Source of the DNA: an uncultured archaeon
Lineage (GTDB): Archaea; Thermoproteota; Nitrososphaeria; Nitrososphaerales; Gagatemarchaeaceae
Assembly: GCA_963799775.1 (NCBI GenBank)
Contig: CAWCYD010000003.1
Location: 160,001 to 224,000 of the forward strand
Direction: 5' to 3'
DNA: 64,000 nt
The notes below the pieces were generated by a model. That model was not told where the DNA came from. It worked only from the letters and a program-made list of their open reading frames with translations, and did no database searches. This document shows, in pieces, positions 12,151 to 52,099 of this stretch. Positions within the stretch are counted from its first letter, which is position 1; the number at the start of each line of letters is the position of its first letter. The position numbers and the translations under genes were made by a program.

Positions 12151-12342
12151 ATGTCAAGAGTGGCTGGTTAGAGCCAAAGGCCTGCTCCGAGTCTACTGGG
12201 TCGATGCGCTAGCCTTCTCTGATCAAGAAGGCTCAAGGCGAGGTATCTTCGTTTCAGAAGTTCCGACAACCCCTCCGGCCTTGAACCACGCTGGAGGGTG
12301 CAAAATACATATACGAACTGACGGGTTCAACAGCGTACTCCG

Positions 12343-12549
12343 TTGTCTTCGCGCGGCCAGGTCTTCTGCCCTCTCTGCAAGGAGAGGGCTCGGCCCTACA
12401 TGGTCGGCGTATTCCGCGTATGGCGCTGTCCCAACCGGTCGTGCGCCCTGTACGAGACCATGGTCCAGAAGGACGACTCGCGGCACGCGGAGATATCGGT
12501 CTACTGGCTGACGGATGAGGACTTGAAGAAGCTACAGCTCAGGGAGTAG
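12343..12549 (+). CDS. Zn-finger microprotein
   Basis: CPLC...WRCPNRSC. Confidence 0.6.
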   Translation: MSSRGQVFCPLCKERARPYMVGVFRVWRCPNRSCALYETMVQKDDSRHAEISVYWLTDEDLKKLQLRE

Positions 12550-12922
12550 GCTGACGCGAGTTGGAACTGAGCGCCAGCGCCTGCCCCTGTCAGTGCCATG
12601 CGAGGGTCAGGCCGACGCATCACATCGACGAGCCCTTCGCAAGACCGTGGGGGGACCAGTGCGGCTACTGCGGGTGCATCGCCCGTTGACCTGCCGCGTC
12701 GCGCGTTCGTGGTGGGAAGCCCTTGGTTCGGTAGGCCCCGCTGGACCCGCGAAGACCAGGAAATCGGGTCACGCGCTCGCATACACGATGATCACGTCAG
12801 ACACAGGTCAAGCCTCGGGAGATACACCGGCGGTCGGAATTGCGGCCTAGAGGCGCCCTATCTGCTCGAGGATGGTGCGATCCTTCTCTATCACGAACCT
12901 TGCTAAGGTGACGAAGCCGGAC

Positions 12923-13315
12923 TCACCAGCGTCGGAACTCTCGGATCTCATGCCCCTGTAACCAGCTTTTCACCTCCTCGGGCGTATAAAACCCTTCACG
13001 GATGCCGATGACCACGCGGCCGTTGTACCTCGCCCTCAACTCTTCGCCGTTGGTGATGAGGAAGGTATCGGTCACGGTCCACGCAGTGCGCCTGTTCGCG
13101 CTCCCAAAGGCGTGCTTCTTGATTAGCCCGATGAAGATCACCGCAGCCTTGTCGAAGATGTCGCCGTGCTTGGCCTTCGCCTCCGCCAGGGTGGTCTCAA
13201 TAGCAATCCTTGACTTCACGCTGTGCGCGTCTCCTCTCTTGGCTCTCACCTGTTGCAGGACGATCTTGTTCACCTCGATTATGTCGTCTACAGTCGGATA
13301 GACTATGCCGCCCAA
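12923..13315 (-). CDS. Doc/Fic-family toxin-like protein
   Basis: YPTVDDIIEVN, DIFDKAA, HAFGSANRRTA (Fic motif variant). Confidence 0.85.
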   Translation of the reverse strand: MGGIVYPTVDDIIEVNKIVLQQVRAKRGDAHSVKSRIAIETTLAEAKAKHGDIFDKAAVIFIGLIKKHAFGSANRRTAWTVTDTFLITNGEELRARYNGRVVIGIREGFYTPEEVKSWLQGHEIREFRRW

Positions 13316-13590
13316 GCCGAACGATTGGTTGGTCTCGAACTATATACGCTAGGATCTGATTGTGGCTTTGGGACGTAATTCGGCAGGTCATAGATGAATT
13401 GTAGTCACGCAACGCAGCGATATGTCTGAATGTATCGTTCCCGTGACTCTCTGCCCAAGAGTTTCTCACCCATTGGCCTAAGGGAGAAGAGATCGATGCT
13501 GATTCCAACCGGGTCCACGAACGGAGGCGTGCTCGTTCAGGGGTCTCGCGGGATCGCGTGACGACTCAGATGGTGCGGCCTGGGGCGCAG

Positions 13591-13959
13591 TCAAAGCCAG
13601 CCCAAGCTCCACTCTGAAAGGTACCTCTCGATGTCGGACCGGTCAGTTACGCGACACTGCTTCATCAGCTTCCGGTTGAGGCGGTTCCTGCGCTCGCGGA
13701 GCTTCGTGTAATTGGGATTTGCCCTCATCGTCGGGGAGGAGTGCTGCGTGAGCCACTTCAGGTCTTTGTCTATCAGGCCCGAGAGATACCGGAGTTCGTC
13801 CTGGGTAAGGCGGGGCCGTCCGGAAGGCGTCCGTGCTTGTTTGGTTCCATTTGAAGGAACCCTTAGGTCACGTTGCCCAGAGGTATTCTCAAATGGTGCC
13901 GTTTGTTCATCGACATATTCGCCCTTGACATCGATTATCACGGCGTCGCCGGAGCTCAT
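13591..13959 (-). CDS. Hypothetical protein
   Basis: ATGA overlap with the ATPase gene. Confidence 0.55.
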   Translation of the reverse strand: MSSGDAVIIDVKGEYVDEQTAPFENTSGQRDLRVPSNGTKQARTPSGRPRLTQDELRYLSGLIDKDLKWLTQHSSPTMRANPNYTKLRERRNRLNRKLMKQCRVTDRSDIERYLSEWSLGWL

Positions 13960-15347
13960 GCCCCCGCCTGCTGGGGAAGCTTCGCCGCCATCGTATCGGA
14001 TGCGGCGTTAGCGTTCATTTCCGGCGTCGCCGCAATATTGGCGGCCTTGCCGCTATCTGCCGCAATCCTAGGCCCCAAATCAATGGCGGCAATGAAGTCC
14101 TGAGGGGAGGCATATTCGCATCGTAGCAGGCTCTCCCATGCCCCCAAAATAATTCTCTCTCGGTCGAGCGTAGCTCCCTTCGAGCCCTCCATCACTTCGT
14201 AGATGTGAGATCCGTGGTACCCTTTCTCTTCTTTTCCCTCCGCGTCAGTCTTCGCTATGAGGACTTGCTTCTCTCGGAGCGAGGCGACGAGCTGCCGGAG
14301 GGTCCGGCTCGAATAGAGGTCGCTCTTACCCTCCTTCCTCGCGGCCTTGACGAGTTCTGGGGCCGTGAGCGGTTGCACCTTCACGGCGAGGTCAAGAAGC
14401 TCCTTCTCCTTGTCGGTCAGGCCGCCTAGTGTCTGGCGGAGATTGCTTCCCGCCTTCTCGAGGACCAACCAAAGGTCATCGATGCTCGCTACGATCTGCT
14501 TTTCGCCATCCGTCTCGATGATAGGCCGCTGCATGAAGTGGAGCTTCGCCGAGGCTTCGATGAGCCTAGAGAGCTTTTCGGTGTCGCGCCTGCTCGAGGG
14601 GCGGTCCTTCGGGATTATCGAGTCAAGGGACTCGGCGAACGGGGTAATGACCCGGAGCCTCTCCGTCTCCTCGAGAATACGCTCCATAGTCCATCGAGCG
14701 GCGCCTTGCTTGAGGAGATAGTCCGTGAACCTGCGTTGCGCTCTCTTCTTGAGCTTCGCCCTGACAACTTGCCCCGTGGTCTTCTCGTCATCGCGGATGT
14801 GCAGGACCGACAGCCTGTTGAGGAGCTCGGGAGGGACCCAGCGGCTTGACGTCAGGAGAAATTGGTCGACTTTGACGCGGCGCTCTACGCTTTCCATGCC
14901 GCCCTCTCCTTTCTTCGGAAAGAGGAGGACGAGTTCGCCTTCGCTGATGAGGAGCTTCATGTTAAACTGACTCGTGCTCTCTTCGTCTCCGGAGGGCCTG
15001 AGCTCCGCAAGGTATAGGGTGTGATAGAGCGCGTCTTCCTTCAGCCATCGGAGAGCGTTCTCCGTCATGTCACTTACTTTCCTCACCCAACCCACCGGCA
15101 TTATCGACGTGACCGCATCGACGAGGGAATTCTTCCCGCCCGAGCTGGCGCCGTCGACCAGGAGACTTTGACGGGCGACCATCTCTAGGATGAGCTGCGC
15201 GACGTTCTCATCCTCTCCCACCAAAAAGTCCTCTTTGGCGTCGGGCTTGCTCGCCGCCTCGAGAAGACGGTCGAGAATGTCCGGAGCCCGCAACCAGACT
15301 AGCGCCTCCCCGCGGGCAGGGTCGAGCTCGTCGGCCATCGAACTCAC
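13956..15347 (-). CDS. MCM-like AAA+ ATPase (putative replicative helicase) with C-terminal wHTH
   Basis: Walker A GASSGGKN, Walker B-like LYLAE, Arg finger ELLNR, sensor-2-like SRRDTEKLSRLIEASAKL. Confidence 0.7.
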   Translation of the reverse strand: MSSMADELDPARGEALVWLRAPDILDRLLEAASKPDAKEDFLVGEDENVAQLILEMVARQSLLVDGASSGGKNSLVDAVTSIMPVGWVRKVSDMTENALRWLKEDALYHTLYLAELRPSGDEESTSQFNMKLLISEGELVLLFPKKGEGGMESVERRVKVDQFLLTSSRWVPPELLNRLSVLHIRDDEKTTGQVVRAKLKKRAQRRFTDYLLKQGAARWTMERILEETERLRVITPFAESLDSIIPKDRPSSRRDTEKLSRLIEASAKLHFMQRPIIETDGEKQIVASIDDLWLVLEKAGSNLRQTLGGLTDKEKELLDLAVKVQPLTAPELVKAARKEGKSDLYSSRTLRQLVASLREKQVLIAKTDAEGKEEKGYHGSHIYEVMEGSKGATLDRERIILGAWESLLRCEYASPQDFIAAIDLGPRIAADSGKAANIAATPEMNANAASDTMAAKLPQQAGA

Positions 15348-16433: not shown

Positions 16434-17231
16434 ATGTCAAACAAGCCTAAATTGACACCTGTGCGAAAAGAGGGCATCGCGGACAGCGTAAGGATGGAAA
16501 CCCTCAAAGTTCTGGCAGAGGAAGGTGAAGTCTTTCAAAGCAAACTGATTAGCGCTGTGGCGAACCGGTTGGTCCTGGATCCAAACACCACAAGCGGGCT
16601 CGTCAGGAAATTCCTGGATAAGCAGAAGGGCGACCTCGTCAAGATTTCCAAATCGGCAAAAACGGGTTTTTTGGAAGGTCCGAGGAGGAAGTACTGGGAG
16701 CTAACAACTAATGGCATAGGATATCTGTATGGGGAAACACACGATCTCGCGGAACTTTCGAAAGTCATAACGAAGCTGCAGCCGCCGGAGTACGGAGGGA
16801 TGCTGGCAATCTACGAGACAATCGCAAGTAGCAAGAAGCTCTGCAAGGAAGTCGAACTCGACCTGAACATGTACTATGACGGACTAGCGAAGTCCGCTGA
16901 ATATCATAATATTGGCAAAAGACTTCAACGCGGACTACAAATCAAGGTCGACGTTGGGATTACGTACGACATAGGCGGAATCTTAATTGCATCTGTCATG
17001 CAGCACTTAGCCCAAGACAAGGATTTGAGAAGCGAGGTTGGGTATGTTAGGATCTCCAAAGTCTGCGAGTTTGCGGCTGCGCTTGCTCGGGATCAAGAAC
17101 AGAATCTAAAATCCTTCAAAAGCGTGATAAGAGTCATGAGAGGTTCAATGGAGTCACCCTCAAAAGTGCAGAATTCACGTTCCTTGTCCAGTCGTACAAA
17201 AGTGCCTCAGCCATCGAACGCCTCGGTCTAA
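16434..17231 (+). CDS. Winged-helix transcriptional regulator (putative repressor)
   Basis: N-terminal wHTH ending GPRRKYWELTTNG; divergent from the replication operon. Confidence 0.6.
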   Translation: MSNKPKLTPVRKEGIADSVRMETLKVLAEEGEVFQSKLISAVANRLVLDPNTTSGLVRKFLDKQKGDLVKISKSAKTGFLEGPRRKYWELTTNGIGYLYGETHDLAELSKVITKLQPPEYGGMLAIYETIASSKKLCKEVELDLNMYYDGLAKSAEYHNIGKRLQRGLQIKVDVGITYDIGGILIASVMQHLAQDKDLRSEVGYVRISKVCEFAAALARDQEQNLKSFKSVIRVMRGSMESPSKVQNSRSLSSRTKVPQPSNASV

Positions 17232-17317: not shown

Positions 17318-18694
17318 CTATCCGACTTCAGTTCTTCCGGTCTGATACGGGGCATTTCTGGGTCGACTTGCAAACCCTCTCCGATCAGCTTCCGTATCGC
17401 AGGATGACTCAAGAGGACAGTTCAATGCCTCGTCGTTCGCTCGCCTCTCCTCGCGCTCGGTCTGACTCGAGCGTTCCATGTCCGTGAGCCTCTGCTTGGT
17501 TTCGAGCAGCTCGATCCTCGTGTCCCGCAGCTTGACATCCTGCTCATCCTCTATCTTCTCGAGCTTCTGACTAAGCTGAGCTTCAGACCTGTAGGCCTCA
17601 CCGATGCTCAAGTACGGCATGGCTCTCAAGTATTGCTCTATAGCAGGCTTCGGGATGTGGCGATCATAATGTTCTTTGGTCCCCGTCGAATGTCCGATAA
17701 GTTTCTCGACGTACTCCTCGGCGATGTGGTCTTTGGAGACATTATCAAAGAACTTCCTCAATCCATGGCACGCCTGTACCTCGAAGCGCTTCGCTGACCC
17801 CTTCTGCCTCAGGCCGGCCTTCCAGCAAAGCCGGGTCACGTCGTTCCTTATCCCTGTGACGCTGTATCTCGTTTGCTTTCCCACAGCCCATCTCCGGGTT
17901 ACGATGAGAGGTGATTCCTCGGTGACTTTCTCGCCCTTTGCTCTCCGAGTTCCCAGGTACTCTTGGAACTTCAAAAAAGCTTCCTTCGAAATCAGCGTTT
18001 CGTACTCGTCGTCACCTTCGTCCGCGTACACAGTCACCTGTGCGCAGGCAAGATTCCCCTTAATCATGACGGGCTTGACATGCCCGACGTTGAGAAACTC
18101 AAAGGCTCCGACCCTCATCCCGGACGAGGCCATGAACAGGATTGCCACCTGCAGGTGGAGGGAAGCGACGGCCAGAAGTTTCTGGATCTCCTCGAACTTG
18201 TACTCTCTGTCCTTGCTCCTCTTCTCCGCGGGGAGCAGTCGCATCATCTTCTTCCACGGTATGGCGACCTCGTTCATCTCGAGGGCGAGCTTTATCGGTG
18301 TGAGGCGCCTCCTCACTTCAGCCGGGCCGAGCTCTCCCTTTGCGACCTTTTCGTTGAGCATGCGGATGAAGCGAAGGACGTCCACCTTCGCTTTCGTTGG
18401 GTCATTCACCGAGGCCTGGATCAGCTTGTACATCCCGTTGGTGGTTTCGGCTCTGGTCTGGTTAGCCAGATAGTCTGGGCCTCGGGTGTGGTGTATCTTC
18501 TTCGGGTCGGCGTATCCCGCGAACTCGAGGAACCAGCGCGAGTCCCGGAAGTAGTCCTGCTTCGTCCACCTGCTCTTGACGGACTCCCAAGGAAGTATCA
18601 AGGCCTCGTGCTGGGCGTCGCTGGGCATCGCCATAGCTACGGTCGAGGGTTCGAGTCGAGGGACTCCTGCGCCTATTGTCTCCTGGCCTGTCAT
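17318..18694 (-). CDS. Tyrosine integrase with C-terminal coiled coil (probable late frameshift)
   Basis: SSGMRVG (R), HGLRKFF (HxxR), LIGH, HY catalytic Tyr; adjacent to att/tRNA. Confidence 0.92.
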   Translation of the reverse strand: MTGQETIGAGVPRLEPSTVAMAMPSDAQHEALILPWESVKSRWTKQDYFRDSRWFLEFAGYADPKKIHHTRGPDYLANQTRAETTNGMYKLIQASVNDPTKAKVDVLRFIRMLNEKVAKGELGPAEVRRRLTPIKLALEMNEVAIPWKKMMRLLPAEKRSKDREYKFEEIQKLLAVASLHLQVAILFMASSGMRVGAFEFLNVGHVKPVMIKGNLACAQVTVYADEGDDEYETLISKEAFLKFQEYLGTRRAKGEKVTEESPLIVTRRWAVGKQTRYSVTGIRNDVTRLCWKAGLRQKGSAKRFEVQACHGLRKFFDNVSKDHIAEEYVEKLIGHSTGTKEHYDRHIPKPAIEQYLRAMPYLSIGEAYRSEAQLSQKLEKIEDEQDVKLRDTRIELLETKQRLTDMERSSQTEREERRANDEALNCPLESSCDTEADRRGFASRPRNAPYQTGRTEVG

Positions 18695-19035: not shown

Positions 19036-19986
19036 TTGGAACGGACAAGGTGGCTGAATTTGGACAAAATAACCGTGAAGAACTCGTACATCCCTTGGTC
19101 TTTCCTTGACATCGTCGCAAGAGAAGACGGCATCTTTGCCAAGCGAAACTTGGATGTCGACCTGTTCTCGATAGCGAGCAAAGACGTGGAACCCGCCGAC
19201 AAGGTAGCGTGGTATTCAAACATGGTCAGAGACGGCATGCTGGATGCCTACTCGGTCTGCGCGTGGGGTGCAATCGACAGGCTCGCAGAGACCAAGCGCG
19301 AGAAGATCCTCGCGGCGTCCACCTCCTCGGGATACGCGTTCTCGATATTGGTAGCCCCGGGATTGGGGATAAAGACCGCCGCGGACCTCGCAGAGATTCC
19401 CATCGCGGTGAACATGAAGACGGGGTCGCATTATTGCATCCTGAGCGACCTCGAGAGGGTCCTTCCTTACAGCAAGATCAAAGTCGTGCACGGCGCCGAG
19501 CCCTCGAGCAGGCTCAGGGGGCTGTTGGAGGAGAAGTTCCAGGCCATAGCCCTCATCAGCCCGTACACCGAACTCGCTGTCCAGCTAGGATTCGTGAAGG
19601 TGGCCGAGACAAAGACGGTCGACGTCCTGGCGTTCGTGGCGAGGGACGACCTCCCGACAGGAGTGCTGACAAGGTACCTGGCCTCCCTGGACGAAGCGGC
19701 CAGGAAGCTCAGGGCGAACCCGGAGAACTACAGGGCCCTCTACGTCGAGACCTTCCGGGCGACTTTTCGAGGCTTCCCCGAGGAATGGAAGAGCAGGATA
19801 AACAAGCTCATCGACAAGATCGCAGCGACGATCCCGATCACCACGTGGAGTGAGCTGGCCGAGTACCCGAAGGAGTCGTTCAACTCCCTTAGCACGTGGA
19901 TGAGCAAGCACAACCTCCTGGAGGCGAACGTTCAGTACGAGAACCTCGTCTTGAACAAACCTCTCGAGAAGGTCTCTACCAGCTAG
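19036..19986 (+). CDS. NMT1/Thi5-like periplasmic-binding-protein-fold protein, no signal peptide
   Basis: VAREDGIFAKRNLDV, IKTAADLAE, TGSHY; VCAWG motif. Confidence 0.75.
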   Translation: MERTRWLNLDKITVKNSYIPWSFLDIVAREDGIFAKRNLDVDLFSIASKDVEPADKVAWYSNMVRDGMLDAYSVCAWGAIDRLAETKREKILAASTSSGYAFSILVAPGLGIKTAADLAEIPIAVNMKTGSHYCILSDLERVLPYSKIKVVHGAEPSSRLRGLLEEKFQAIALISPYTELAVQLGFVKVAETKTVDVLAFVARDDLPTGVLTRYLASLDEAARKLRANPENYRALYVETFRATFRGFPEEWKSRINKLIDKIAATIPITTWSELAEYPKESFNSLSTWMSKHNLLEANVQYENLVLNKPLEKVSTS

Positions 19987-20931
19987 GTGGGTGGCAGGTC
20001 GTTGCCGCAGAGGCTGACCACTATAACGCACGGGTATTACCAACCGTACTTCTACTGGATGTTCCCCATCTTGGTCGCCAGGGAGGAAGGCCTCTTCGAG
20101 GAGGAAGGAATCGCCCTTGACGTGCACGACATCGTTCCCGGCGGCCAGCCGGAGAACAAGGCCGAGTGGTATAGGGAGGCGCTCGAGCAAGGTTCGCGCG
20201 ACTTTTACTTCTGCTGCGCTTGGCAGGGCGTCTACAGCACATGCGAGACCGGGAAGGGCAAGATCGGTGCCGCGATCAAGTCGACGCTCATCAAGACGTT
20301 CGGAATCTACACCAAGCCTGACTCGCCCGTCCGCAACATCTTAGACATCACAGAGAACGGCGTCGAGATCGCCGTCAACAAGAACGCGGACGCGCACTAT
20401 GTGACCCTCGAGAATCTCGCAGAGTTCGTCCCTGCGTCGCAGGTCAGGCTCAAGCACCTAGGTGGGATCGACAGCTGCTTCAAAGCTCTGGCAAACGGGG
20501 ATGTCAAGGCTGCGACGCTGGCCGGGCCGTACGCGGAGGCAGCAGAGGCCATAGGCTACAGGAGGGTCATGGCGCTTTCCAGGACGCAGCCCACCCTAAT
20601 AGTCTTCAACGACGCGGTGGACACGCCCGCCGCCAACTCTTTCCTCGCGGCCGTCAACAAGGCTGTTCACAGAGTGAACGCAGACAGACCCAGGTACCAC
20701 GCGAGGTATGTGAAAGAATTCGAGGAGGTCGTGAACAGGTACATCCCAGAGCTGAGGAACGAACTGCCGAAGGTGAAGGCGAGGATAAGCCTACCTGCCT
20801 GGGCGGAGACAAAGATTCTCAGCGAGGCAGACTTCAACGAGGTCCGCGACTTCCTGGTCGAGCACGGGCTCTCCGCGAAAGGCAACGGCTACGCGGGGAC
20901 CGTCAAGACGACCCTGGCCATCTCACACTAG
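19987..20931 (+). CDS. NMT1/Thi5-like periplasmic-binding-protein-fold protein, paralogue, no signal peptide
   Basis: VAREEGLFEEEGIAL, DSPVRNILD, ADAHY; FCCAWQG motif. Confidence 0.75.
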   Translation: MGGRSLPQRLTTITHGYYQPYFYWMFPILVAREEGLFEEEGIALDVHDIVPGGQPENKAEWYREALEQGSRDFYFCCAWQGVYSTCETGKGKIGAAIKSTLIKTFGIYTKPDSPVRNILDITENGVEIAVNKNADAHYVTLENLAEFVPASQVRLKHLGGIDSCFKALANGDVKAATLAGPYAEAAEAIGYRRVMALSRTQPTLIVFNDAVDTPAANSFLAAVNKAVHRVNADRPRYHARYVKEFEEVVNRYIPELRNELPKVKARISLPAWAETKILSEADFNEVRDFLVEHGLSAKGNGYAGTVKTTLAISH

Positions 20932-20950
20932 AGGTGCGATGTGAACCCAC

Positions 20951-22330
20951 ATGGTCACAAGACTGGAGCGAGCGATCGAGATTCCAAGGCAATGGTATAA
21001 CATCGCGCCGGACCTTCCAAGCAAGCTCCCGCCCGTGATAGACCAGCATACGCATGGACTGGCTGACAAGAAGATACTCCACAGGCTCTTCGTAAACGAG
21101 GTCGCAAGGGGAGAGTATTCGGGCGAGCGGTTCATCACCATCCCGGAGGAACTTAGAGACGTCTATTCGATCTGGAGGCCGACTCCTCTCGTGAGGGCGA
21201 AGAGGCTGGAAAGGGCGCTGAACACGCCTGCGAGGATCTACTACAAGAACGAGTCCGTGAGCCCGCCCGGGTCGCACAAGGCCAACGCCGCCGTGGCACA
21301 GGCTTACTATGCGAAGAAGGAAGGAACTGAGAGGCTAGTCACGAGCACCACCGCCGGCCAGTGGGGGACCGCCCTCGCCTTCGGTTGCACGATCTTCGGA
21401 GTAAAGTGCACCGTCTACATGTCAAAGTCCAGCTACGACAGCAAGCCCTATCGCAAGGATCTCGCCGAGGCCTGGGGCGCCGAGGTAATCTCGAGCCCCA
21501 GCGCGAAGACAAAGGTCGGGAGGGACATCCTAGCGCGAGACCCGAACTCGAGCGGGTCGATGAGCATCGCGAAGAGCGAGGCCCTGGAGGACACCGAGAA
21601 CGACCCGACCGCCAAGGACGCGGTCGGCAGCATCATGAATTTCGTCTTGGCGACCCAGACGGTGATAGGCCAAGAGGCTCAGGCGCAGATGGAGCCATAT
21701 GAGGACTATCCGGACATCGTGATCGGCTGCGTCGGCGGAGGGAGCAACTTCTCAGGGATATTCTGGCCCTACTATTACAAAATGGTCAGCAAGACGAGCC
21801 CGAAGCAGGTCAGGTTCCTCGGTGTCGAGTCATCGGCCGTCCCGAAGCTCACGAAGGGTCGATACATGTACGACCACTCCGATGTGATGAGGATGAGCCC
21901 GCTCTTCAAGATGTACACCGCAGGCTCGACGTTTGTGCCGCCGGAGATCCACACCGGCGGTCTAAGGGTCCATGGGACGGCTCCCAGCCTGAGCCTGCTC
22001 GTGAACGCGGGAATGGTGAGCGCCGTCGCCTACAGCCAGCCAGAGGTCTTCGAGGCGGGCGCGCTATTCGCGCGGACGGAGGGGATACTGCCCGCCCCCG
22101 AGTCGGCCCACGCGATAAAGGCGACAATCGACGAGGCCAGGCGATGCAAGCAGCAAGGCAAGGAGGAGGTCATCCTCTTCAACCTTTGCGGCCACGGCAT
22201 CCTGGACATCGAGGGATATCGCGAGTACTTCGCGGGCAAGATGAAGGACAACGACGCCGACCCGGCGGAGCTGAGAAGAGCCCTCGACGAGGTGAAGGGG
22301 TTGTACCCTTGGTTGCAGGGCAACGGCTAG
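20951..22330 (+). CDS. trpB2: TrpB2-like PLP enzyme with divergent active site
   Basis: QWYNIAPDLP, WRPTPLVRA, GSHK, CVGGGSN, PAPESAHA, NLCGHG; ETGAGQWG is replaced by STTAGQWG. Confidence 0.88.
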   Translation: MVTRLERAIEIPRQWYNIAPDLPSKLPPVIDQHTHGLADKKILHRLFVNEVARGEYSGERFITIPEELRDVYSIWRPTPLVRAKRLERALNTPARIYYKNESVSPPGSHKANAAVAQAYYAKKEGTERLVTSTTAGQWGTALAFGCTIFGVKCTVYMSKSSYDSKPYRKDLAEAWGAEVISSPSAKTKVGRDILARDPNSSGSMSIAKSEALEDTENDPTAKDAVGSIMNFVLATQTVIGQEAQAQMEPYEDYPDIVIGCVGGGSNFSGIFWPYYYKMVSKTSPKQVRFLGVESSAVPKLTKGRYMYDHSDVMRMSPLFKMYTAGSTFVPPEIHTGGLRVHGTAPSLSLLVNAGMVSAVAYSQPEVFEAGALFARTEGILPAPESAHAIKATIDEARRCKQQGKEEVILFNLCGHGILDIEGYREYFAGKMKDNDADPAELRRALDEVKGLYPWLQGNG

Positions 22331-22364
22331 GCAACGCGACACACGCCCTAGGTTGAGGCATACA

Positions 22365-23196
22365 ATGACCAAGCGACGACCTCTCTCCTACGGCGAGTAT
22401 CTCGGGCTGGACGAGCTGCTCGACATCCAACGGCTTGTCTCCAAGCCCCGGCAGCACGACGAGGTGCTCTTCCTTATCGCCCATCAGGCCTACGAGCTCT
22501 GGTTCAAGCTCATGCTCAACGAGCTGGAGACCGCGATCTCTCACATGCTCGCAGACAACCTGTCAGAAGCCACGCGGCTCATCAGGAGGGTCGTCCCCGT
22601 ACAGAGGGCCCTGATCCAGCAGCTCGAGGTGCCTGGAGACGATCAGGCCCTCAGACTTTCTGAAGTTCAGGAGCATTCTCAACCCCGCCAGCGGCTTCCA
22701 GTCCCTCCAGTTCAGGGAGCTGGAGTTCATCTCCGGTCAGAAGGACGAAAGATACCTCAAGCTCCACGTCGGGAACGAGAAGGACTACGAGCAGCTGCTG
22801 AAGAGGTGGGAGGCCCCAAGCCTCTGGGACGGCTTCAGGAGCGTTTTGGAGGAGCGGGGGTTCGATTTGGGGAAGAAGGCGAAGGGGAATGAGAATGCCG
22901 TCTTCGAGCTCGAGGTCGAGGCCTCGCTCAAGATCTTCACGGAGAGCAAGTACCTGCACGTGGCGGAGCTTGCGGAGGTGTTGCTCGACTACGACAAGCA
23001 TTTCCAGCTGTGGCGGAGCCACCACATCATGATGGTGGAACGAGTAATAGGCGGTAGGCCGGGGACGGGCGAGAAGGTGGTCAACAAGACCGTCGGCACC
23101 GACTCGTTCCATTCCTCTGGCGTGACCTATCTCCAGACCACGATGGGAAAGAGGTTCTTCCCCGCGCTATGGGCTGCAAGGACAAGGATAGGATGA
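22365..23196 (+). CDS. kynA: Tryptophan 2,3-dioxygenase family protein (frameshift near 22630)
   Basis: YGEYLGLDELL, HDEVLFLIAHQAYELWFK, PASGFQSLQFRELE, WRSHH..MVERVIG..GTG, FFPALWAART. Confidence 0.88.
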
Positions 23197-24068
23197 CACG
23201 GAAGCGGGGGATGAGACTCCATCATGTCTCGGCAAAGGTGCGCGCGAGGATCGCAGCGGGCGACTCGATATATGAAGGATGGGGGGCGAACCAGGGGTTC
23301 GTCACGACGAGCATTGGGGCTGTCGTCGTTGACACGGGCTTCACTTCGACGTCCGCCAAGGCCCTCCTGCGGGACCTGCGCGCGACAGGGTCCGCTCCTG
23401 TGAAGCTGATCGTGAACACGCACGACCACTCCGACCACGTCTTCGGGAACTCCGTCTTCGACGCATACTCTCCTCTCATCATGGCTCACCTAAACTGCAG
23501 GTCTAGGCTCCTGGAGCTGGGCAAAGAACGGATGCGCGGATACCGCAGGTTCGACAAAACACTGAGGGCGGACCTCACGGGGCTCCGCATCTCGCCCCCG
23601 CAGGTGACCTACGAGGACGGGTTGGAACTGGACATCGGGCAGACCAATTTCCGTTTCATCCACCCAAAGAACGGGGCGCACACGACAGGCGACACGATGG
23701 TCCTCCTCCCCGATGAAAAGATCCTCTTCGCGGGGGACGTCTTGTGGACGGGCTACCACCCCAACCTCGAGGACGCAGACATAGAGGCCTGGCTACAGGA
23801 GCTCGATGCTATCTCGAGGATGAAGGTGGACCTGATCGTCCCGGGACACGGGAAGGTCTCGGACAAGAGCAGCGTCGCTCCGCTCGCGACCTACCTTCGC
23901 GAGTTTGACTCTAGGATGAGCAAGCTCGTCCGGGATGGCGTCCCCAAGGCGAGCATCCTCCCGGAGCTCGAGATCCGTGGTTCGGAGGAATGGAGCCTGA
24001 AGATGATCGTCCAGCGCAACTTGGACATCCTTTACGACCGATACGTAGCCCGCGAGCGCGCCGTCTGA
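23193..24068 (+). CDS. MBL-fold metallo-hydrolase
   Basis: THDHSDH, AHTTGD, FAGD, VPGHG; ATGA overlap with the dioxygenase gene. Confidence 0.88.
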   Translation: MTRKRGMRLHHVSAKVRARIAAGDSIYEGWGANQGFVTTSIGAVVVDTGFTSTSAKALLRDLRATGSAPVKLIVNTHDHSDHVFGNSVFDAYSPLIMAHLNCRSRLLELGKERMRGYRRFDKTLRADLTGLRISPPQVTYEDGLELDIGQTNFRFIHPKNGAHTTGDTMVLLPDEKILFAGDVLWTGYHPNLEDADIEAWLQELDAISRMKVDLIVPGHGKVSDKSSVAPLATYLREFDSRMSKLVRDGVPKASILPELEIRGSEEWSLKMIVQRNLDILYDRYVARERAV

Positions 24069-24076
24069 CAGGAGGT

Positions 24077-25032
24077 TCATGGGAGACCTAGCTTGATGAA
24101 GGTGTCAAGAGTGTCGGGGAGCGTCTCGAGGTCCCTGCGCGTCGGGGTGGAAGGTGGTCTTTGGGCTGTACTCTACCTCGAAGGGATAAGCCGCCTTTAT
24201 CCCCGGCATCGAAGGCGATATCCCCGAGATCCTCCCGATCAACCTCTGCGCGTCCTCGCTCAGAAGGAAGTCCATGAACTTGCGTGCCGACTTGTTATCG
24301 CTCGCCGTCTTTAGCAGCGCCGCTGTTGTGAAGGTGAGCATCCGGGGGATCTTCTCGGTCTCGAACGACCTGACCGGGGAGCCAGCCGTCCTCTCGCGGA
24401 AGTAGGCAAGTGAGTACACCGTAAGTGAGAGGTCGTGGTCCCCGTCGATGAGCCCCTGGAGCAGGTGGTCAATGCAGTCGTAGGTCAGAGGCTTGTTCGG
24501 GCCCGCCAAGCTCCTCAGGAGCTCGCGCCATTTCTTCCCGGACGTTTTCCTCTTGAGGAAGTTCATGTAGTGGGCGCCGATGTTGCCGAACTTGCTCGTA
24601 GTGAGCGACTGCATCCCGAGCCTTCCCCTCCACTTGCTCGAGATTATCTCATCGAGGCTTTGAGGGAGGTCACTTTGCGGAGAGATTCTTGGGGTTGTGC
24701 GCCATCGTCATGAAGGTCACGCCTGCAGCGAACCATCTCATCCTCCTATCGTAGAACTTCTGCGGGTACGCTCCGATGCCCTTCGCATCGTGCGGAGCAA
24801 ACAGGCCCTCCTTGTCCATGTTGATGGCAACGTAGTGCGGGACGATGACTACGTCCGCAGTCCGCATCCCGTGCTTCATCTCCTGCCGAATCCTGTCCTG
24901 GACCTGGAATGGGTGGTCGTCCAGGTAGACAGGGAACTCCTCCAGGGTGTTCTTCTTCCTGAATGCCCACAGGAGGTCTGAGGTGCCCGAACGAAGCCCC
25001 AACGACGCGTAGATTATCACCCTCTCAGGCAT
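24077..25032 (-). CDS. Substrate-binding-protein-fold protein (iron/thiamine class), no signal peptide, frameshifted
   Basis: RVIIYASL, ADVV, MAHNP, ARKFMDFLLSEDAQ across ORFs 24670..25032 and 24105..24614. Confidence 0.7.
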
Positions 25033-25056
25033 TCGAGTTCCTCGGCGGGGCGCGAG

Positions 25057-26209
25057 TTATTTATCGGTTGAACGGCCGTGCTCGAAGAATTCCTTCACGC
25101 GTCGGACCCCCTCGACTATCGTCTCAGGCGGGCTCCCGAAGGATATTCGGAGGTGACCCTCTCCGGCTGGCCCAAAGATCGCTCCTGGCAGGAGCGCGAC
25201 GTTCTGCTCTTTGAGCATCCGCGTCGCTAGGGATCTCGAGCCTTCCCTGCCCTTGAACCCGGGGAAGCCGTAGAAGGCTCCTTCCACTGGTTCCCACTCC
25301 AGGGCCTTGATGCCTGATAGCTCCTCCTGAAGGATGCCTCTCCGTCGCCTCAACTCCTCCCTGAACTCCTTTGTGTAGTTCTGGCAGTTCTTCAGCGCAT
25401 AGGCCGAAGCCACCTGGATGAAGGGAGGGAAGCATGTCACTGCGGTCTCGAGGAACCTGTTGACCAAGAGGATGGTCCCGGCGTCTGCCACGACATATCC
25501 CGCACGCCAGCCGGTCATGGCGAAGCTCTTCGAGAGACTGAAGATTGAGACGACCGTCTCAGGCCTCTTCTCGAGCGAGCCGACCGATGTGTGCTTCTTC
25601 TCGTAGACGAGGTTCCTCGTAGGCCTCGTCGCTGACCAACCTCACGCCTCTCTCGATGCAGAGCTGAAGCAACTCTTTGAGCTCGCTCTTCTCGAAGACC
25701 TTGCCAGCCGGATTCGAAGGGGTGTTGACGATCATCGCCCTCGTCTTTGGCGTGATCTTGGCCTTGATTTCGTCGAGGTCCAGTCGGAAGTCCTTTGTGA
25801 GCCGATACCTCACGGGCTTTCCCCCAGACAAGACGACCGGTTCGGAGTAGTAGTAGCCGGGGTCCGGGACCAGGGCCTCGTGACCCTTCATCCCGAGCGA
25901 TAGCAGGGTGGCGTAGATGGACAGCTTGGTCGTGATGAAGATCGAGTTTTCCTTTTTCGCCATGATGCGGTTCTTACGCTGGACCTTCTCTACGATTGCC
26001 TCCCTCACCTCATCCAAGCCCCAAGAGGTGGTGTAGTGCCCTCCGCCGCTCCTCATGCTCTCGTACGCTGCCCTCACTATGGGGGGAGGAGTGTCGAAAG
26101 AAGGCTCGCCTATCGAGAGGGAGAAGACCTTCTCTCCTGCGGCCCTCTTACTAGCGGCCAGGTTGAAGATCTCGAAGGCTGGCGAGTCTTGTATCTCGTC
26201 TAGGGACAC
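25057..26209 (-). CDS. Class I/II PLP-dependent aminotransferase (frameshift near 25615)
   Basis: LSIGEPSF, VNTPSNPAG, SDEAYE, SLSKSFAMTGWRAGY, LRISF. Confidence 0.9.
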
Positions 26210-26376
26210 GCCGACCCGCGTGTCCTATTCGGGATTTAAGCGGTGCGAGGGCTGGTGCCGAAGGCAGCCCTTCCCGACTCGCAAATGCCAGCTGTAGAAC
26301 GAGGAAAGTGAACAAATGTAAAGCAATTCAGTGAATATCTTTATATCGCATGCAGCCAATAGTCTCGTCTACGCGA

Positions 26377-26712
26377 TTGAAGAAGATCGAAGCTGCGGTG
26401 CGCAAAGACAAGTTCCCTGATGTCGATCTTGCTCTGAAGATGATCGGTGTCTCAGGCCTCACGGTAGCTGAGGAGGAGCGGGCATCCAGAGGGATGTGGT
26501 CCTATCCGCTCGAGAAGATCCCGCACATGATCGTCACAGTCGTAGTGGACGACCGAGACGTGGGCCAGGTCGTGGATTCGATCCGCGAGACCGCCTCGAC
26601 CAGGTCATCGGGCGACGGCAGGATCGTGGTCACCTCAATAGACAACGCCTGGGACATCGGGACAGGCATGCCTGACCGGACGGACCTTTCCGTCCCTTCG
26701 CTCGGATTCTAG
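26377..26712 (+). CDS. P-II family signal protein with short T-loop
   Basis: KKIEAAVR, GVSGLTV, GDGRIVV. Confidence 0.85.
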   Translation: MKKIEAAVRKDKFPDVDLALKMIGVSGLTVAEEERASRGMWSYPLEKIPHMIVTVVVDDRDVGQVVDSIRETASTRSSGDGRIVVTSIDNAWDIGTGMPDRTDLSVPSLGF

Positions 26713-31624: not shown

Positions 31625-32223
31625 ATGGGAACAGAACGAGAAAACGAAGGAACGAGAGATGATAACGATTTGAAAACCTCTACCATGGTGAAAGAGCAGG
31701 AGACGAAGGCGGTCAAGGACGACCTCAAGAAGCTAGAGAAGACTCTGCAGGACGAGCGCAGACGCAACGAGGAGATTCTGACGAGCTTCAAATACCTGCA
31801 GGCCGACTTTGAGAACTATAGGAAGAGGGTCGACCGCGAGATCCGGGAGCTGGAGGAGTTCTCCACGGTCGGGCTGGTCCGGAAGCTGATACCAGTCCTC
31901 GATGACCTCGACCTCGCGGTGACCACGGCGGCCAAGTCCGCGGACAAGGGCCTCCTGGAGGGAGTGAAGATGGTCCAGAAGAACCTCGGCTCCGCCCTAG
32001 AGGGCGAGGGCCTTGAAGAGATCAAGGCAGTCGGGCAGCCGTTCGACCCGTCCTCTCACGAGGCCGTCGACAAGGTCGAAGGGACGGACAACTCGAACGA
32101 CATGGTGGTCGAAGAGATGAGGAAGGGCTACAAGTTCAAGGGCAAGCTGCCCTCAGGCCGACCGCCGTCAAGGTCCAGCTTGCCGCGAGGGCTGAGAAGG
32201 CGAAGGAGGAAGAGCAGGCATGA
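31625..32223 (+). CDS. grpE: Nucleotide exchange factor GrpE (late frameshift)
   Basis: [23 protein letters not shown]. Confidence 0.93.
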
Positions 32224-34127
32224 GCTCCAGCAACCAAGCCAAGTCCGGTCCCTCCGCGAGAGAGAAGATCATAGGGATCGACCTAGGGACGACCAACTCC
32301 GCAGCAGCGGTCATGGAGGCTGGGCGACCCATTGTCGTCCCGAGCGCGGAAGGGCAGACGGTGGCGGGGAAGATGTTCCCATCCGTAGTCGCTTTCACCT
32401 CCGACGGGCAGCTCCTTGTGGGCGAGCCTGCGAAGCGACAGGTCGTCACGAACCCTGACGGCACGATATTCGAGATCAAGCGGAAGATGGGCACCGACTA
32501 CAAGGTGCGGATAGCAGGCAAGGAGTTCACTCCCCAGCAGATCAGCGCCTTCATCCTACAGAAGATCAAGAAGGACACCGAGACCTTCCTGGGCTATCCC
32601 GTGAAGAAGGCCGTCATCACGGTCCCCGCGCACTTCAACGACAATCAACGCCAGGCGACGAAGGACGCCGGCGAGATCGCCGGACTGGATGTGGTGAGGA
32701 TAATCAACGAGCCGACGGCCGCGTGCCTAGCGTACGGGCTGGACAAGACAGACAAGGAGATGAAGGTGCTCGTCTTCAGCTTCGGTGGAGGCACCCACGA
32801 CGTCACTGTGATGGAGTTCGGAGGCGGCGTCTTCCAGGTCCATCGCCACGAGCGGCGACACGCAGACGGGCGGGGCCGACGTGGACTACGCGATAGTCAA
32901 CCTCATCGTCAGCGATTTCAGGTCTAAGACAGGCATCGACCTCAAGAACGACAGGACCGCGATGACCCGCCTCAAGGAGGCCGCGGAGAGGGCGAAGATC
33001 GAGCTCTCGAACATAATCTCGACCGACATCGACCTTCCCTTCATCGCGAGCGACTCCACGGGGACCAAGAACCTTCACTTCACCCTGACCAGGGCGAAGC
33101 TCGAAGAGCTCGCGGCCCCGATAGTCGCGAAGGTGGAGGAGCCGATCTCCCGTGTGATAAGCGACGCGAAGCTGACGACCAAGGACATCGACAAGGTGAT
33201 CCTGATAGGAGGGATGACCAGGATGCCCCTCGTCAGACAGAAGGTGGAGCAGGTTATGGGCAAGCCAGCCGAGAGGGGGGTCGACCCCATGGAAGCTGTC
33301 GCCATCGGCGCGTCGATCCAGGGTGCGGTCTTGGCAGGCGAGGTGAAGGACATCCTGCTCCTCGACGTCACGCCCCTCTCCCTGGGCGTGGAGACGCTCG
33401 GGAACGTCACCGCCAAGGTGATAGAGAGGAACACGACGATCCCGGTCAAGAAGAGCCAGACGTTCACGACCGCGGCGGACATGCAGACCGCGGTCACGAT
33501 CCACGTCGTCCAGGGCGAGAGGGCCATGGCTGGGGACAACATCTCCCTGGGCATGTTCAACCTCGAGGGGATACCGCCCGCGCCGCGTGGGTCCCGCAGA
33601 TCGAGGTCACCTTCGACATCGACGCGAACGGCATCCTCAACGTGACCGCCCACGACAAGGGCACGGGGAAGGAGGCCAGGATCACCATCTCGGCCTCTAC
33701 CAAGCTCTCGAAGGACGAGAAGGAGAAGATGGTGGCCCAGGCGGAGCAGTACGCCGAGCAGGACAAGAAGAAGATGGAGGAGGCCCAGATAATGAACGAC
33801 GCCGACTCGCTCCTCTACACATCCGAGAAGACAAAGACCGACCTCGCAGGCAAGATCAGCAAAGAGTCGGAGGACAAGATAACGGCAGCGGGAGGAGACC
33901 TCAGGAAGGCCATGGAGGGCAAGAACCCGGACGAGGTCAAATCCAAGTCCGAGGCTCTCCGGAAGATCCTCCAAGAGGTGGGGACCGCGGTCTACCAGCA
34001 GCAGGCGCAGGCTGCCCAGGCGACCGCAGGCGGGGGAGGCCCCGGACCGACGACGCAGGGCGGGGCCCCGGGCGACGGGACCATGACCGACGCCGACTAC
34101 AAGGTCGTCGATGAAGATAAAAAGTAA
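32220..34127 (+). CDS. dnaK: Chaperone DnaK (two frameshifts)
   Basis: [36 protein letters not shown] across three ORFs. Confidence 0.96.
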
Positions 34128-41736: not shown

Positions 41737-43246
41737 TCACCACTTGACTTTGAGCGTGAGCGGATGGGACGCCTTGACCTCGTCTATCCTCCCCACGCTC
41801 GTGTTCCTTGGCTCGTCGTCGAGGTCTCCGGCTTTCAGCCTCTCGAAGAGCGTGTTCAGGACGGCGGCGTAGTCGTCAAGGGACTCGACCGTCTCGGTCT
41901 CGGTGGGCTCTATCATCAAGGCTTCGTCGACGGTCAGCGGGAAGTAGACCGTTGGGGAGTGGACGCCGTAGTCCAGTATGGCCTTTGCGATCTTCCCGGC
42001 GCCACCGTGGGGGCCTCTCACGGAGACTATGGCCTCGTGCTTCCTCCTTATCCCGCCTCCGACCGGGATGGAGTACCCCTGCGGGTTCAGCTTCGAGAGG
42101 AGGTAGTTGGCTCCCAGGACCGCGAGGCTCGAGACGTTGTCGAGCCCGTCCGCTCCGAGGAGCCTGATGTACGAGTAGGCCCTGAGAAGGATCGCAGAGT
42201 TGGCGTAGAACCCCTTCAGCCTCCCGATGCTCTTCGGCCGAGCGTAGTTGAGGCCGTACTCCTCGCCTTTCTTCTCCACGAGAGGAACGGGGAGGTAGTC
42301 CTCGAGCTCCTTCGACGCGCCCACAGGCCCCGCACCGGGCCCTCCGCCCCCGTGGGGCGTCGCGAAGGTCTTGTGGAGGTTGAGGTGCACGACGTCGAAC
42401 CCCATGTCCCCCGGCCTCGCCTTGCCGAGGAGTGCGTTCATGTTCGCGCCGTCGTAATACATCATCCCGCCCGCATCGTGTATCGCCTTTGAGATCTCCA
42501 ACACGTCCGGCTCGAAGAGGCCCAGCGTGTTGGGGACTGTGAGCATCATGCCGGCGGTCCTGGGCGTGAGCTTCTCCTTCACCGACTCGACATGGACGAG
42601 GCCGCTCTCGTCCGAGGGGACCTTGACCACGTCGAAGCCTGCCATCGCGGCGCTCGCCGGGTTCGTCCCGTGCGCGGAGTCGGCAACGAGGATCTCGGTC
42701 CTCTCGCCCCTCCCCACGTCTTTCAGGTACTTCTTTATCATGAGGACGCCGGCGAACTCTCCTTGGGCGCCTGCGGCGGTGCTCAGCGCGAACCTGCTCA
42801 TCCCAGTGATCTCGCAGAGCATCCCGGAGAGCTCGTAGAAGACCTGGAGGAGCCCTTGGACCGTCGAGTCGTGCTGGAGGGGATGGGCCTCCCTCATCTT
42901 GGGCGAAGATGCGATCGCCTCCGACACCTTGGGGTTGTACTTCATCGTGCAGCTCCCCAGGGGATACATCCCCGTCTCGACGGAGAAGTTCATCTGAGAG
43001 AGCCGGTTGAAGTGCCTGAGGAGCCTGGAGCTCGGACAGCTCCGGGAGTGGCGCCTCCTCCCCCCTCCTCACGGTTTCGGGGAGCATGCTCGCCGCCTTG
43101 GAGCTTGCCCACTGCTTGATCTTGGGGTCATCGGGGACCGTGAACCCTCGCCTCCCCTTCCTCCCCATCTCCGAGAGCAGGGGTTCGTCCCAGAACGCCT
43201 GCCGATATCTCCTCGTCGTGCTCGCCCTTGTCATCGTCTCTTCCAA
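41737..43246 (-). CDS. gcvPB: Glycine dehydrogenase subunit 2 (frameshift near 43020)
   Basis: YPLGSCTMKYNP, SAHGTNPASA, HLNLHKTFATPHGGGGPG. Confidence 0.95.
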
Positions 43247-51595: not shown

Positions 51596-52099
51596 GTGGT
51601 TGAGATGGACCTCTTCATCCTGAGGCACGCAGAGGCGGGGAAGAGCCTCCCGGCGAGGGCGAAGGACGCCGAACGCGCCCTTACAGCCGACGGAAAAGAG
51701 GAGCTCGAAGAGGTGGCGCGTTCGCTCGCGCGGATGAAGATCAAGCCCGACCACATAGTCTCCAGCCCCTTGAGGCGCTCGAGAGAGACCGCCGAGATAG
51801 TGGCAAAGGCCCTCAAGAAGAGAGGCAAGGTCGAGATCTGGGACGAGCTAAAGCCGGAGGGTAGCAAGGTGGATCTCTACAAGAGGCTGGCAAAGGTCAA
51901 ACCAGAGTCACGCGTCCTGATGGTCGGGCACGAGCCCTATCTGACGCAGGTCATCAACGACATGATGGGGCACCAAGGAGCGGCACGGATACTCCTGAGG
52001 AAGGGCGGCCTCGCACGATTATCAATAAAGTCCCTTGTACCGAAACCGGAGGGAGAGCTAAGATGGCTGTTGACTCCAAGGCTCCTGAAGCGGATGTAA
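51596..52099 (+). CDS. sixA: Phosphohistidine phosphatase SixA
   Basis: LRHAEA, SSPLRRSRETA, VGHEP. Confidence 0.9.
   Translation: MVEMDLFILRHAEAGKSLPARAKDAERALTADGKEELEEVARSLARMKIKPDHIVSSPLRRSRETAEIVAKALKKRGKVEIWDELKPEGSKVDLYKRLAKVKPESRVLMVGHEPYLTQVINDMMGHQGAARILLRKGGLARLSIKSLVPKPEGELRWLLTPRLLKRM

Follow-up and report, generated by a model that had tools for sequence, protein, structure and literature searches.

A conserved gene cluster of soil Thaumarchaeota linking a remodelled TrpB2 to a TDO-family dioxygenase: a candidate aromatic amino-acid pathway

Results

Gene content and conservation of the cluster

The genome of an uncultured Gagatemarchaeaceae archaeon (assembly GCA_963799775.1, hereafter G000) contains a gene cluster in which a TrpB2-family enzyme with a remodelled active site (designated TrpB2*) stands next to a haem dioxygenase of the tryptophan 2,3-dioxygenase (TDO) family and to three cytoplasmic proteins with a binding-protein fold. 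The gene set is kept in a small group of uncultured non-ammonia-oxidising soil Thaumarchaeota and likely encodes an undescribed pathway, the chemistry of which we infer from the genes. The cluster was found in a stretch of 64,000 nt (contig CAWCYD010000003.1, positions 160,001 to 224,000), which is referred to below as the window. Coordinates without a prefix are window positions, and C2 and C3 denote contigs of G000, an assembly of 3 contigs scored as 81.7% complete. The genes of the cluster are as follows:

19036–19986, + strand: NMT1a, cytoplasmic binding-protein-like protein of the SsuA/NMT1 fold, 316 aa
19987–20931, + strand: NMT1b, cytoplasmic paralog of NMT1a (~28% identity)
20951–22330, + strand: TrpB2*, TrpB2-family pyridoxal 5′-phosphate (PLP) enzyme with a remodelled active site
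22365–23196, + strand: TDO-family haem dioxygenase, PF03301 in two frames, one extra base near 22632
23193–24068, + strand: metallo-beta-lactamase (MBL)-fold hydrolase, PF00753, optional member
24105–25032, − strand: FbpA/thiamine-binding-like protein of the binding-protein fold, SBP_bac_11, cytoplasmic, one extra base near 24672
25057–26209, − strand: class I/II aminotransferase-fold PLP enzyme, PF00155, frequent member, one extra base near 25615

The five genes of the plus strand follow one another with gaps of 0, 19 and 34 nt and then an ATGA overlap, and they converge on the binding-protein and aminotransferase genes of the minus strand. The open reading frame (ORF) calls reproduced the positions, spacing and convergent layout given in a preliminary description of this DNA, and profile searches upheld its family assignments for TrpB2, TDO, MBL, the binding protein and the aminotransferase. 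What that description had overlooked is that three of the genes are broken in frame.

Fourteen loci were compared (G000, G020, G011, G022, G017, G006, G008, G013, G023, G037, G334, L031, L032 and L034). NMT1a, NMT1b, TrpB2*, TDO and the FbpA-like protein were found together in all of them, in three different gene orders. The preliminary description had proposed a search for conservation of this neighbourhood across archaea and bacteria; the genes do co-occur in every locus, but these loci come from a narrow thaumarchaeal group. TDO is located directly 3′ of TrpB2* in each locus, with the 34-nt gap in G000 and with overlapping reading frames in G023, L034 and G334. A 566-aa open frame in G334 was considered as a possible fusion of TDO to its neighbour and was rejected, as it arises merely because the frame runs over the end of TrpB2. 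NMT1b always adjoins NMT1a. The most conserved core gene is TrpB2*, with 64–92% identity among the loci.

Of 41 relatives, 10 had both TDO and the NMT1a ortholog, and the others had neither. In an even sample of the class, TDO was detected in 3 of 401 genomes, with counts of 0/223 and 0/78 in the large families f12 and f15. A scan of the genome collection with very specific patterns derived from the NMT1a alignment returned 10 close loci, a result that does not bear on wider absence.

The MBL gene was present in five of the 14 loci, and the aminotransferase gene was adjacent in 10. In five genomes without MBL in the cluster, no MBL ortholog was found elsewhere in the genome. The genome G018, which has neither TDO nor the NMT1a ortholog, nevertheless has both genes tail to tail next to P-II and topoisomerase VI genes (L039, contig C2 of G018, 12245–14406), with identities of 76% for MBL and 73% for the aminotransferase. 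This suggests a separate two-gene unit or a remnant of a deletion. At the corresponding place in G007 and G001, neither of the two genes was found. Since both genes are patchy and occur as a pair without the core in G018, we regard the five genes as the core and these two as accessory. The earlier proposal gave MBL and the aminotransferase a step each in the pathway; given this distribution, neither step is obligatory.

Both accessory proteins were assigned at the level of broad families. MBL matched PF00753 with 80.9 bits, i.e., at the superfamily level, and stayed below the NCBIfam cut-offs (138 vs. 280 bits for the SoxH-related TIGR04559 and 74 vs. 200 for bla_subclass_B1). No kynurenine formamidase of the MBL fold was among the literature matches listed. 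The aminotransferase matched PF00155 on both of its pieces, and its intact ortholog was closest to the aromatic aminotransferase of P. horikoshii (1DJU, 231 bits). It scored under all NCBIfam equivalog cut-offs, the best matches being GntC (264 bits) and archaeal AspAT (263 bits).

Remodelled active site of TrpB2*

TrpB2* matched the family models over its full length (NF009057, 619.5 bits with a cut-off of 366; TIGR01415, 563.5 bits with a cut-off of 518.85), and its best match in the PDB was TrpB2 of S. solfataricus (414 bits). The differences are concentrated in the active site. TrpB2* has the motif VT(S/N)TTAGQWG in place of ETGAGQ(H/W)G of TrpB1 and canonical TrpB2, and GGLRVHG in place of the canonical GGLRYHG, in 13 of the 13 cluster copies aligned. 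The lost glutamate corresponds to E105 of T. maritima and is kept in the other TrpB2 and in TrpB1 of G000. Thus, TrpB2 is atypical, as the preliminary description had it, in that the indole-activating Glu is missing from every aligned copy. GSHK, which we take to be the motif of the PLP-binding lysine, and GGGSN, presumably the phosphate loop, were found in 13 of 13 aligned copies, and the ESAHA motif is also kept.

Among the best 120 database relatives of TrpB2*, 47 carry S/N-T-T (these are the closest ones, with at least 60% identity), 72 carry E-T-G, and one is a fragment without the motif. In a FastTree phylogeny rooted with TrpB1, the variant clade was monophyletic (50 of 50 tips, support 1.0), and its stem measured 0.33 substitutions per site vs. 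a median internal branch of 0.047. The clade also has fixed differences at nine more positions, several of them in active-site motifs and two beside the PLP lysine. The long stem, together with the co-ordinated changes of the active site, indicates a changed function of TrpB2*.

The glutamate equivalent to E105 is reported to be indispensable for forming tryptophan, activating indole via its N-H, and a plant TSB-like paralog of TrpB in which it is replaced (by Ser in Solanaceae) is described in the same source as catalytically dead and as an activator of TrpA (PMC12727527). The engineered tyrosine synthase TyrS4 has E105G as one of its mutations, and its relative TyrS1 was crystallised with a 4-hydroxyquinoline substrate mimic (PMC13174591).

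Properties of the TDO-family protein

The two pieces of TDO matched PF03301 with 66.2 and 42.7 bits (gathering score 34.9), while intact relatives scored 129–134 bits. An intact ortholog aligns end to end with the TDO of X. campestris, to which the cluster protein is identical at Tyr24, Tyr27, Leu28, Phe51, His55, Arg117, His240 and Thr254. We assume that positions 55, 117, 240 and 254 include the proximal and distal haem histidines and the ligands of the carboxylate and ammonium groups of tryptophan. The His and Trp-ligand motifs were present in 113 of the best 120 TDO relatives, all of which are at least 56% identical and, where named, thaumarchaeal. At least 97 of these 120 share a 13-residue insertion in the GTGG-SSG loop. 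The intact ortholog scored 215.7 bits against TIGR03036, below the equivalog cut-off of 390.7.

Aerobic respiration genes have been reported for most Gagatemarchaeaceae (PMC10640624), which fits an O2-dependent TDO. The words tryptophan, kynurenine and indole are absent from the text of that study, although its supplementary annotation tables may list these genes. A literature search on TrpB2 with kynurenine, on gene clusters with TrpB-like proteins and dioxygenases, and on TDO His55/Arg117 gave nothing relevant.

Cytoplasmic proteins with a binding-protein fold

No signal peptide, anchor or conserved hydrophobic N-terminus was found in the 10–11 orthologs of each of the three proteins, so the cytoplasmic location proposed earlier holds for all of them; in contrast, a paralog beside an ATP-binding cassette (ABC) ATPase carries an N-terminal hydrophobic anchor. 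It had also been noted that the window lacks an ABC ATPase. Indeed, none of the 38 matches in the genome falls inside it, and none was found in the cluster of related loci; permeases were not searched for by family.

NMT1a had no Pfam match and a weak match to SsuA_fam (23.7 bits). NMT1b scored 17.3 bits with NMT1 (PF09084), under the gathering score of 20.5, and 28.4 bits with SsuA_fam. For the AlphaFold2 model of NMT1a (pLDDT 93.6), the best Foldseek matches were TauA, SsuA and ThiY, followed by Thi5 and DszB, with a TMq of 0.67–0.71 for TauA/SsuA, 0.59–0.63 for Thi5 and 0.52–0.59 for DszB at 12–17% sequence identity. The label "Thi5-like" used in the preliminary description is, accordingly, not specific, as TauA and SsuA are closer. 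A search for relatives of NMT1a at E ≤ 1e-3 gave 229 among 1.84 billion representatives, and NMT1b had 116 homologs, all with at least 49% identity; the named ones belong to Thaumarchaeota/Nitrososphaerales. The invariant residues of NMT1b include a CC pair. A prediction of the NMT1a–NMT1b heterodimer returned a score of 0.00, i.e., no answer, and is evidence neither way.

The FbpA-like protein matched SBP_bac_11 with 34.4 bits, and its best matches in the PDB were ferric-binding proteins (E 1.5e-9). It bears a distant likeness to ferric- or thiamine-binding proteins and has the invariant motifs LDDHP and YDCIDHL. A search of the ESM Atlas gave generic substrate-binding-protein clusters alone.

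A third NMT1-like paralog (~27% identity), also broken in frame, is located far from the cluster at C3:2048986–2049913, and nothing resembling the cluster was seen around it, judged from the ORF translations only. More distant relatives of the NMT1-like proteins, of 299–312 aa, were found in marine Nitrososphaerales and in a haloarchaeon. Given this paralog and these similar signal-less proteins of ~300 aa, cytoplasmic NMT1-fold proteins make up a wider family in archaea.

Frame breaks in the cluster and in the assembly

TDO, the facing binding protein and the aminotransferase each lie in two frames through one extra base. Intact single ORFs from the loci of five relatives span both frames of each broken gene. 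Similar breaks occur outside the cluster: dnaK (32220–34114) is broken into at least three pieces, and trpA (C3:240116–240887), the nicotinate phosphoribosyltransferase gene and the third NMT1 paralog are also split. The first part of the Pfam domain is missing from a Ppx/GppA phosphatase (52063–53663) and from the glycine-cleavage P-protein subunit (41737–43246), so that these two are probably broken too. The whole points to single-base indel errors being frequent across the assembly.

The three frame breaks of the cluster are most likely assembly errors and not pseudogenes, given that the genes are intact in relatives, that housekeeping genes such as dnaK and trpA show breaks of the same kind, and that the assembly, with 3 contigs, is yet only 81.7% complete. 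A public soil run (X1) contained a quarter of the sampled words; its contigs miss positions 24672 and 25615 and reach 22632 only by a divergent contig. As housekeeping genes are split in G000, pseudogene calls in this genome need the support of reads.

Tryptophan, kynurenine and NAD genes elsewhere in the genome

The preliminary description had called for a check of the rest of the genome for canonical trpB, kynB, kynU and nadC. Canonical trpB is present: trpB1 and trpA were found at C3:238923–240887, ~15 kb beyond the end of the window, and a second TrpB2, 51% identical to TrpB2* and with canonical ETGAGQWG and GGLRYHG, at C3:678064–679329. In total, G000 holds three TrpB-type genes. Because trpB1, trpA and a canonical TrpB2 are available, TrpB2* is surplus to tryptophan synthesis.

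As for kynB, one Cyclase-family (KynB-type) gene is located outside the window at C2:97042–97497. Neither kynU (kynureninase) nor nadC was found in G000, nor was NadA, within the completeness given above. The only QRPTase_C match was a nicotinate phosphoribosyltransferase (371 bits) and not NadC. 3-Hydroxyanthranilate dioxygenase (3-HAO) was not found in G000 either; this result is weak, as the 3-HAO search matched no control genome. Taken together, the presence of canonical trpBA and TrpB2 and the failure to find kynureninase, 3-HAO, NadA and quinolinate phosphoribosyltransferase argue against both plain tryptophan synthesis and a route to NAD.

Within the family, a search of 25 genomes, some with the cluster and some lacking it, yielded no NadA, whereas 11 of 16 genomes from other sampled families of the order had it. 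This family may rely on salvage of niacin or have a novel NAD route. The cluster was considered as a replacement for the missing NAD route and rejected: NadA is missing regardless of the cluster, G037 has both NadA and the cluster, and G000 has a nicotinate phosphoribosyltransferase.

Genomic surroundings

The cluster is surrounded by genes for topoisomerase VI A and B, RIO kinase, GrpE and DnaK. Between the aminotransferase and topoisomerase VI genes there is a gene for a divergent P-II-like protein (26350–26712; PF00543, 45.5 bits), which is kept at that place in seven cluster-bearing genomes of the genus and in G018. Upstream of the cluster, three ORFs (13956–15347, 463 aa; 16434–17231, 265 aa; 17318–18694, 458 aa) had no Pfam match and, in relatives, show no synteny with the cluster. 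Outside the window, at the end of the contig (C3:2052000–2056127), very GC-rich ORFs have translations that by eye resemble condensation and adenylation domains of nonribosomal peptide synthetases. This could be foreign or chimeric sequence.

Discussion

Proposed pathway and its alternatives

Based on the above results, we tentatively suggest that the cluster is a conserved accessory operon encoding an undescribed aromatic amino-acid pathway of the make-then-cleave type, acting on a modified indole-like nucleophile. We consider this version possible, though short of probable. The individual reactions, their order and the end product are what we infer from the genes. In the first step, TrpB2* would form a PLP-aminoacrylate from serine or O-phosphoserine, for which it has kept both the PLP lysine and the arginine of the TrpB2-type GGLR motif. 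Then, TrpB2* would couple the aminoacrylate to a nucleophile that resembles indole without being plain indole, e.g., a ring-substituted indole, giving a tryptophan analogue. A nucleophile other than indole is proposed because the indole-activating Glu is now Ser or Asn and nearby residues of the pocket are changed. The aromatic nucleophile of the preliminary description is compatible with the loss of Glu, while indole itself is argued against. The co-translated TDO would open the ring of the analogue with O2 to a formylkynurenine-type product, since it has retained the binding residues for an alpha-amino acid that bears an indole ring. Where present, MBL may remove the formyl group, and the aromatic-type aminotransferase may yield a 2-oxo acid or a quinoline-type compound. 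For the three cytoplasmic binding-protein-fold proteins, we propose a part in supplying, holding or making either the nucleophile or an intermediate.

A bolder version is also conceivable. TrpB2* would then be a natural aryl-alanine synthase making a product other than tryptophan, a counterpart of the laboratory-evolved tyrosine synthase, whose product is opened by a dedicated TDO, and at least one binding-protein-fold protein would be an enzyme, like Thi5, DszB and MqnA, the outcome being an undescribed kynurenine-like metabolite or cofactor. We regard this combination as rather doubtful.

Several points weigh against the make-then-cleave scheme. The pocket of TDO resembles the one in ordinary L-Trp enzymes, so TDO may just use cellular tryptophan, with TrpB2* acting elsewhere. 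The replacement of Glu by Ser or Asn kills the plant TrpB paralog (PMC12727527), so by analogy TrpB2* could be a non-catalytic partner. MBL and the aminotransferase are dispensable and also found without the core, which makes the downstream steps uncertain, and an enzymatic role of the binding-protein-fold proteins is hypothetical. Finally, if the three frame breaks are real, the operon is decaying in G000.

The canonical Trp pocket of TDO leads to an alternative in which cleavage comes first. TDO, with or without MBL and the aminotransferase, would turn L-Trp into formylkynurenine, kynurenine or a kynurenate-type compound, and TrpB2* would then add an alanyl group from serine or phosphoserine to it or to another non-indole nucleophile, producing a new amino acid or cofactor precursor. 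Conservation of the core would suit this order of events, and so would the loss of Glu in TrpB2*, considering E105G in TyrS4 and the 4-hydroxyquinoline mimic in crystals of the related TyrS1 (PMC13174591). However, its nucleophile is hypothetical, the kynurenate-making MBL and aminotransferase are missing from several loci, and the fixed TrpB2*-then-TDO gene order is silent on the order of the reactions. We consider it unlikely, though worth bearing in mind. The same family assignments would also allow ordinary chemistry, in which TrpB2* salvages or detoxifies indole to L-Trp, TDO with or without a formamidase converts it to kynurenine, and the binding proteins just bind indole or Trp. The HMM scores place both enzymes in these families, Ser or Asn could still hydrogen-bond the indole N-H, and a KynB-type gene is present elsewhere in G000. 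This explanation appears improbable to us in view of the long stem and the co-ordinated active-site changes of the TrpB2* clade. In addition, the Glu, retained by the other TrpB2 and TrpB1 of the genome, is reported as indispensable for forming tryptophan (PMC12727527), and no kynureninase, 3-HAO, NadA or NadC that could use the product was found in G000.

It is quite improbable that TrpB2* has a non-catalytic or regulatory role, activating or scaffolding TDO or a binding-protein-fold protein in the manner of the plant TSB-like pseudoenzyme. That protein lost the same Glu (Ser in Solanaceae; PMC12727527), and the standing of TrpB2* as the most conserved core gene would agree with such a role. 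On the other hand, TrpB2* still has its PLP lysine, GGGSN phosphate loop and ESAHA motif, and the cluster contains no TrpA-like partner. The retention of these motifs, along with the conservation of the gene, leads us to predict a functional enzyme with an altered nucleophile. There is very little to recommend the idea of a chance neighbourhood in which the binding proteins belong to a transporter with its genes at another locus. It is true that databases label them ABC substrate-binding proteins and that FbpA-like paralogs adjoin ABC ATPases at C3:1.999–2.028 Mb. But signal peptides and anchors are missing from all orthologs of the three, the paralog beside an ABC ATPase is anchored, and all three stay with TrpB2* and TDO through rearrangements in the 14 loci.

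TrpB is a mainstay of biocatalysis, and opening the enzyme to new nucleophiles in the laboratory requires the removal of its catalytic Glu. A natural, conserved TrpB2 clade with that very change, tied to a ring-opening dioxygenase, would show what use nature makes of such an enzyme, and TrpB2* would be a ready-made starting enzyme. The cluster would also give a subset of the Group I.1c-type soil Thaumarchaeota, an abundant group as yet uncultured, a first metabolic trait that is specific. Furthermore, the few cases in which a binding-protein fold has been recruited to a cytoplasmic role gain three candidates.

Comparison with known systems

NMT1a shares the SsuA/NMT1 fold with Thi5 (HMP-P synthase) and DszB (desulfinase) and is likewise cytoplasmic, with a likeness at the fold level only. 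It differs from them in that the transport proteins TauA and SsuA are its closer structural matches.

The bacterial kynurenine pathway is encoded by kynA (TDO), kynB and kynU. The cluster resembles it in having a TDO-family dioxygenase with the His and Trp-binding residues and, in some loci, a hydrolase gene next to it. The hydrolase, however, has the MBL fold and not the cyclase fold and is optional, the TDO falls under the equivalog cut-off and has the 13-residue loop insertion, and the kynureninase, 3-HAO and quinolinate phosphoribosyltransferase genes were not found in G000.

The stand-alone archaeal TrpB2 is a tryptophan synthase beta that salvages indole and uses O-phosphoserine. TrpB2* is similar to it in the full-length match to the family HMM above the cut-off, in the PLP lysine and in the GGLR motif. 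At the same time, Glu is replaced by Ser or Asn, the next Gly by Thr and the pocket Tyr by Val, at least six more positions differ, and the protein belongs to a separate clade with a long stem. With the plant TSB-like pseudoenzyme and TyrS, TrpB2* has in common the loss of the same catalytic Glu of TrpB (PMC12727527, PMC13174591). Both of these proteins are of the TrpB1 type, the former a dead activator of TrpA and the latter a laboratory product, whereas TrpB2*, with no TrpA nearby, represents a natural TrpB2 clade linked to TDO.

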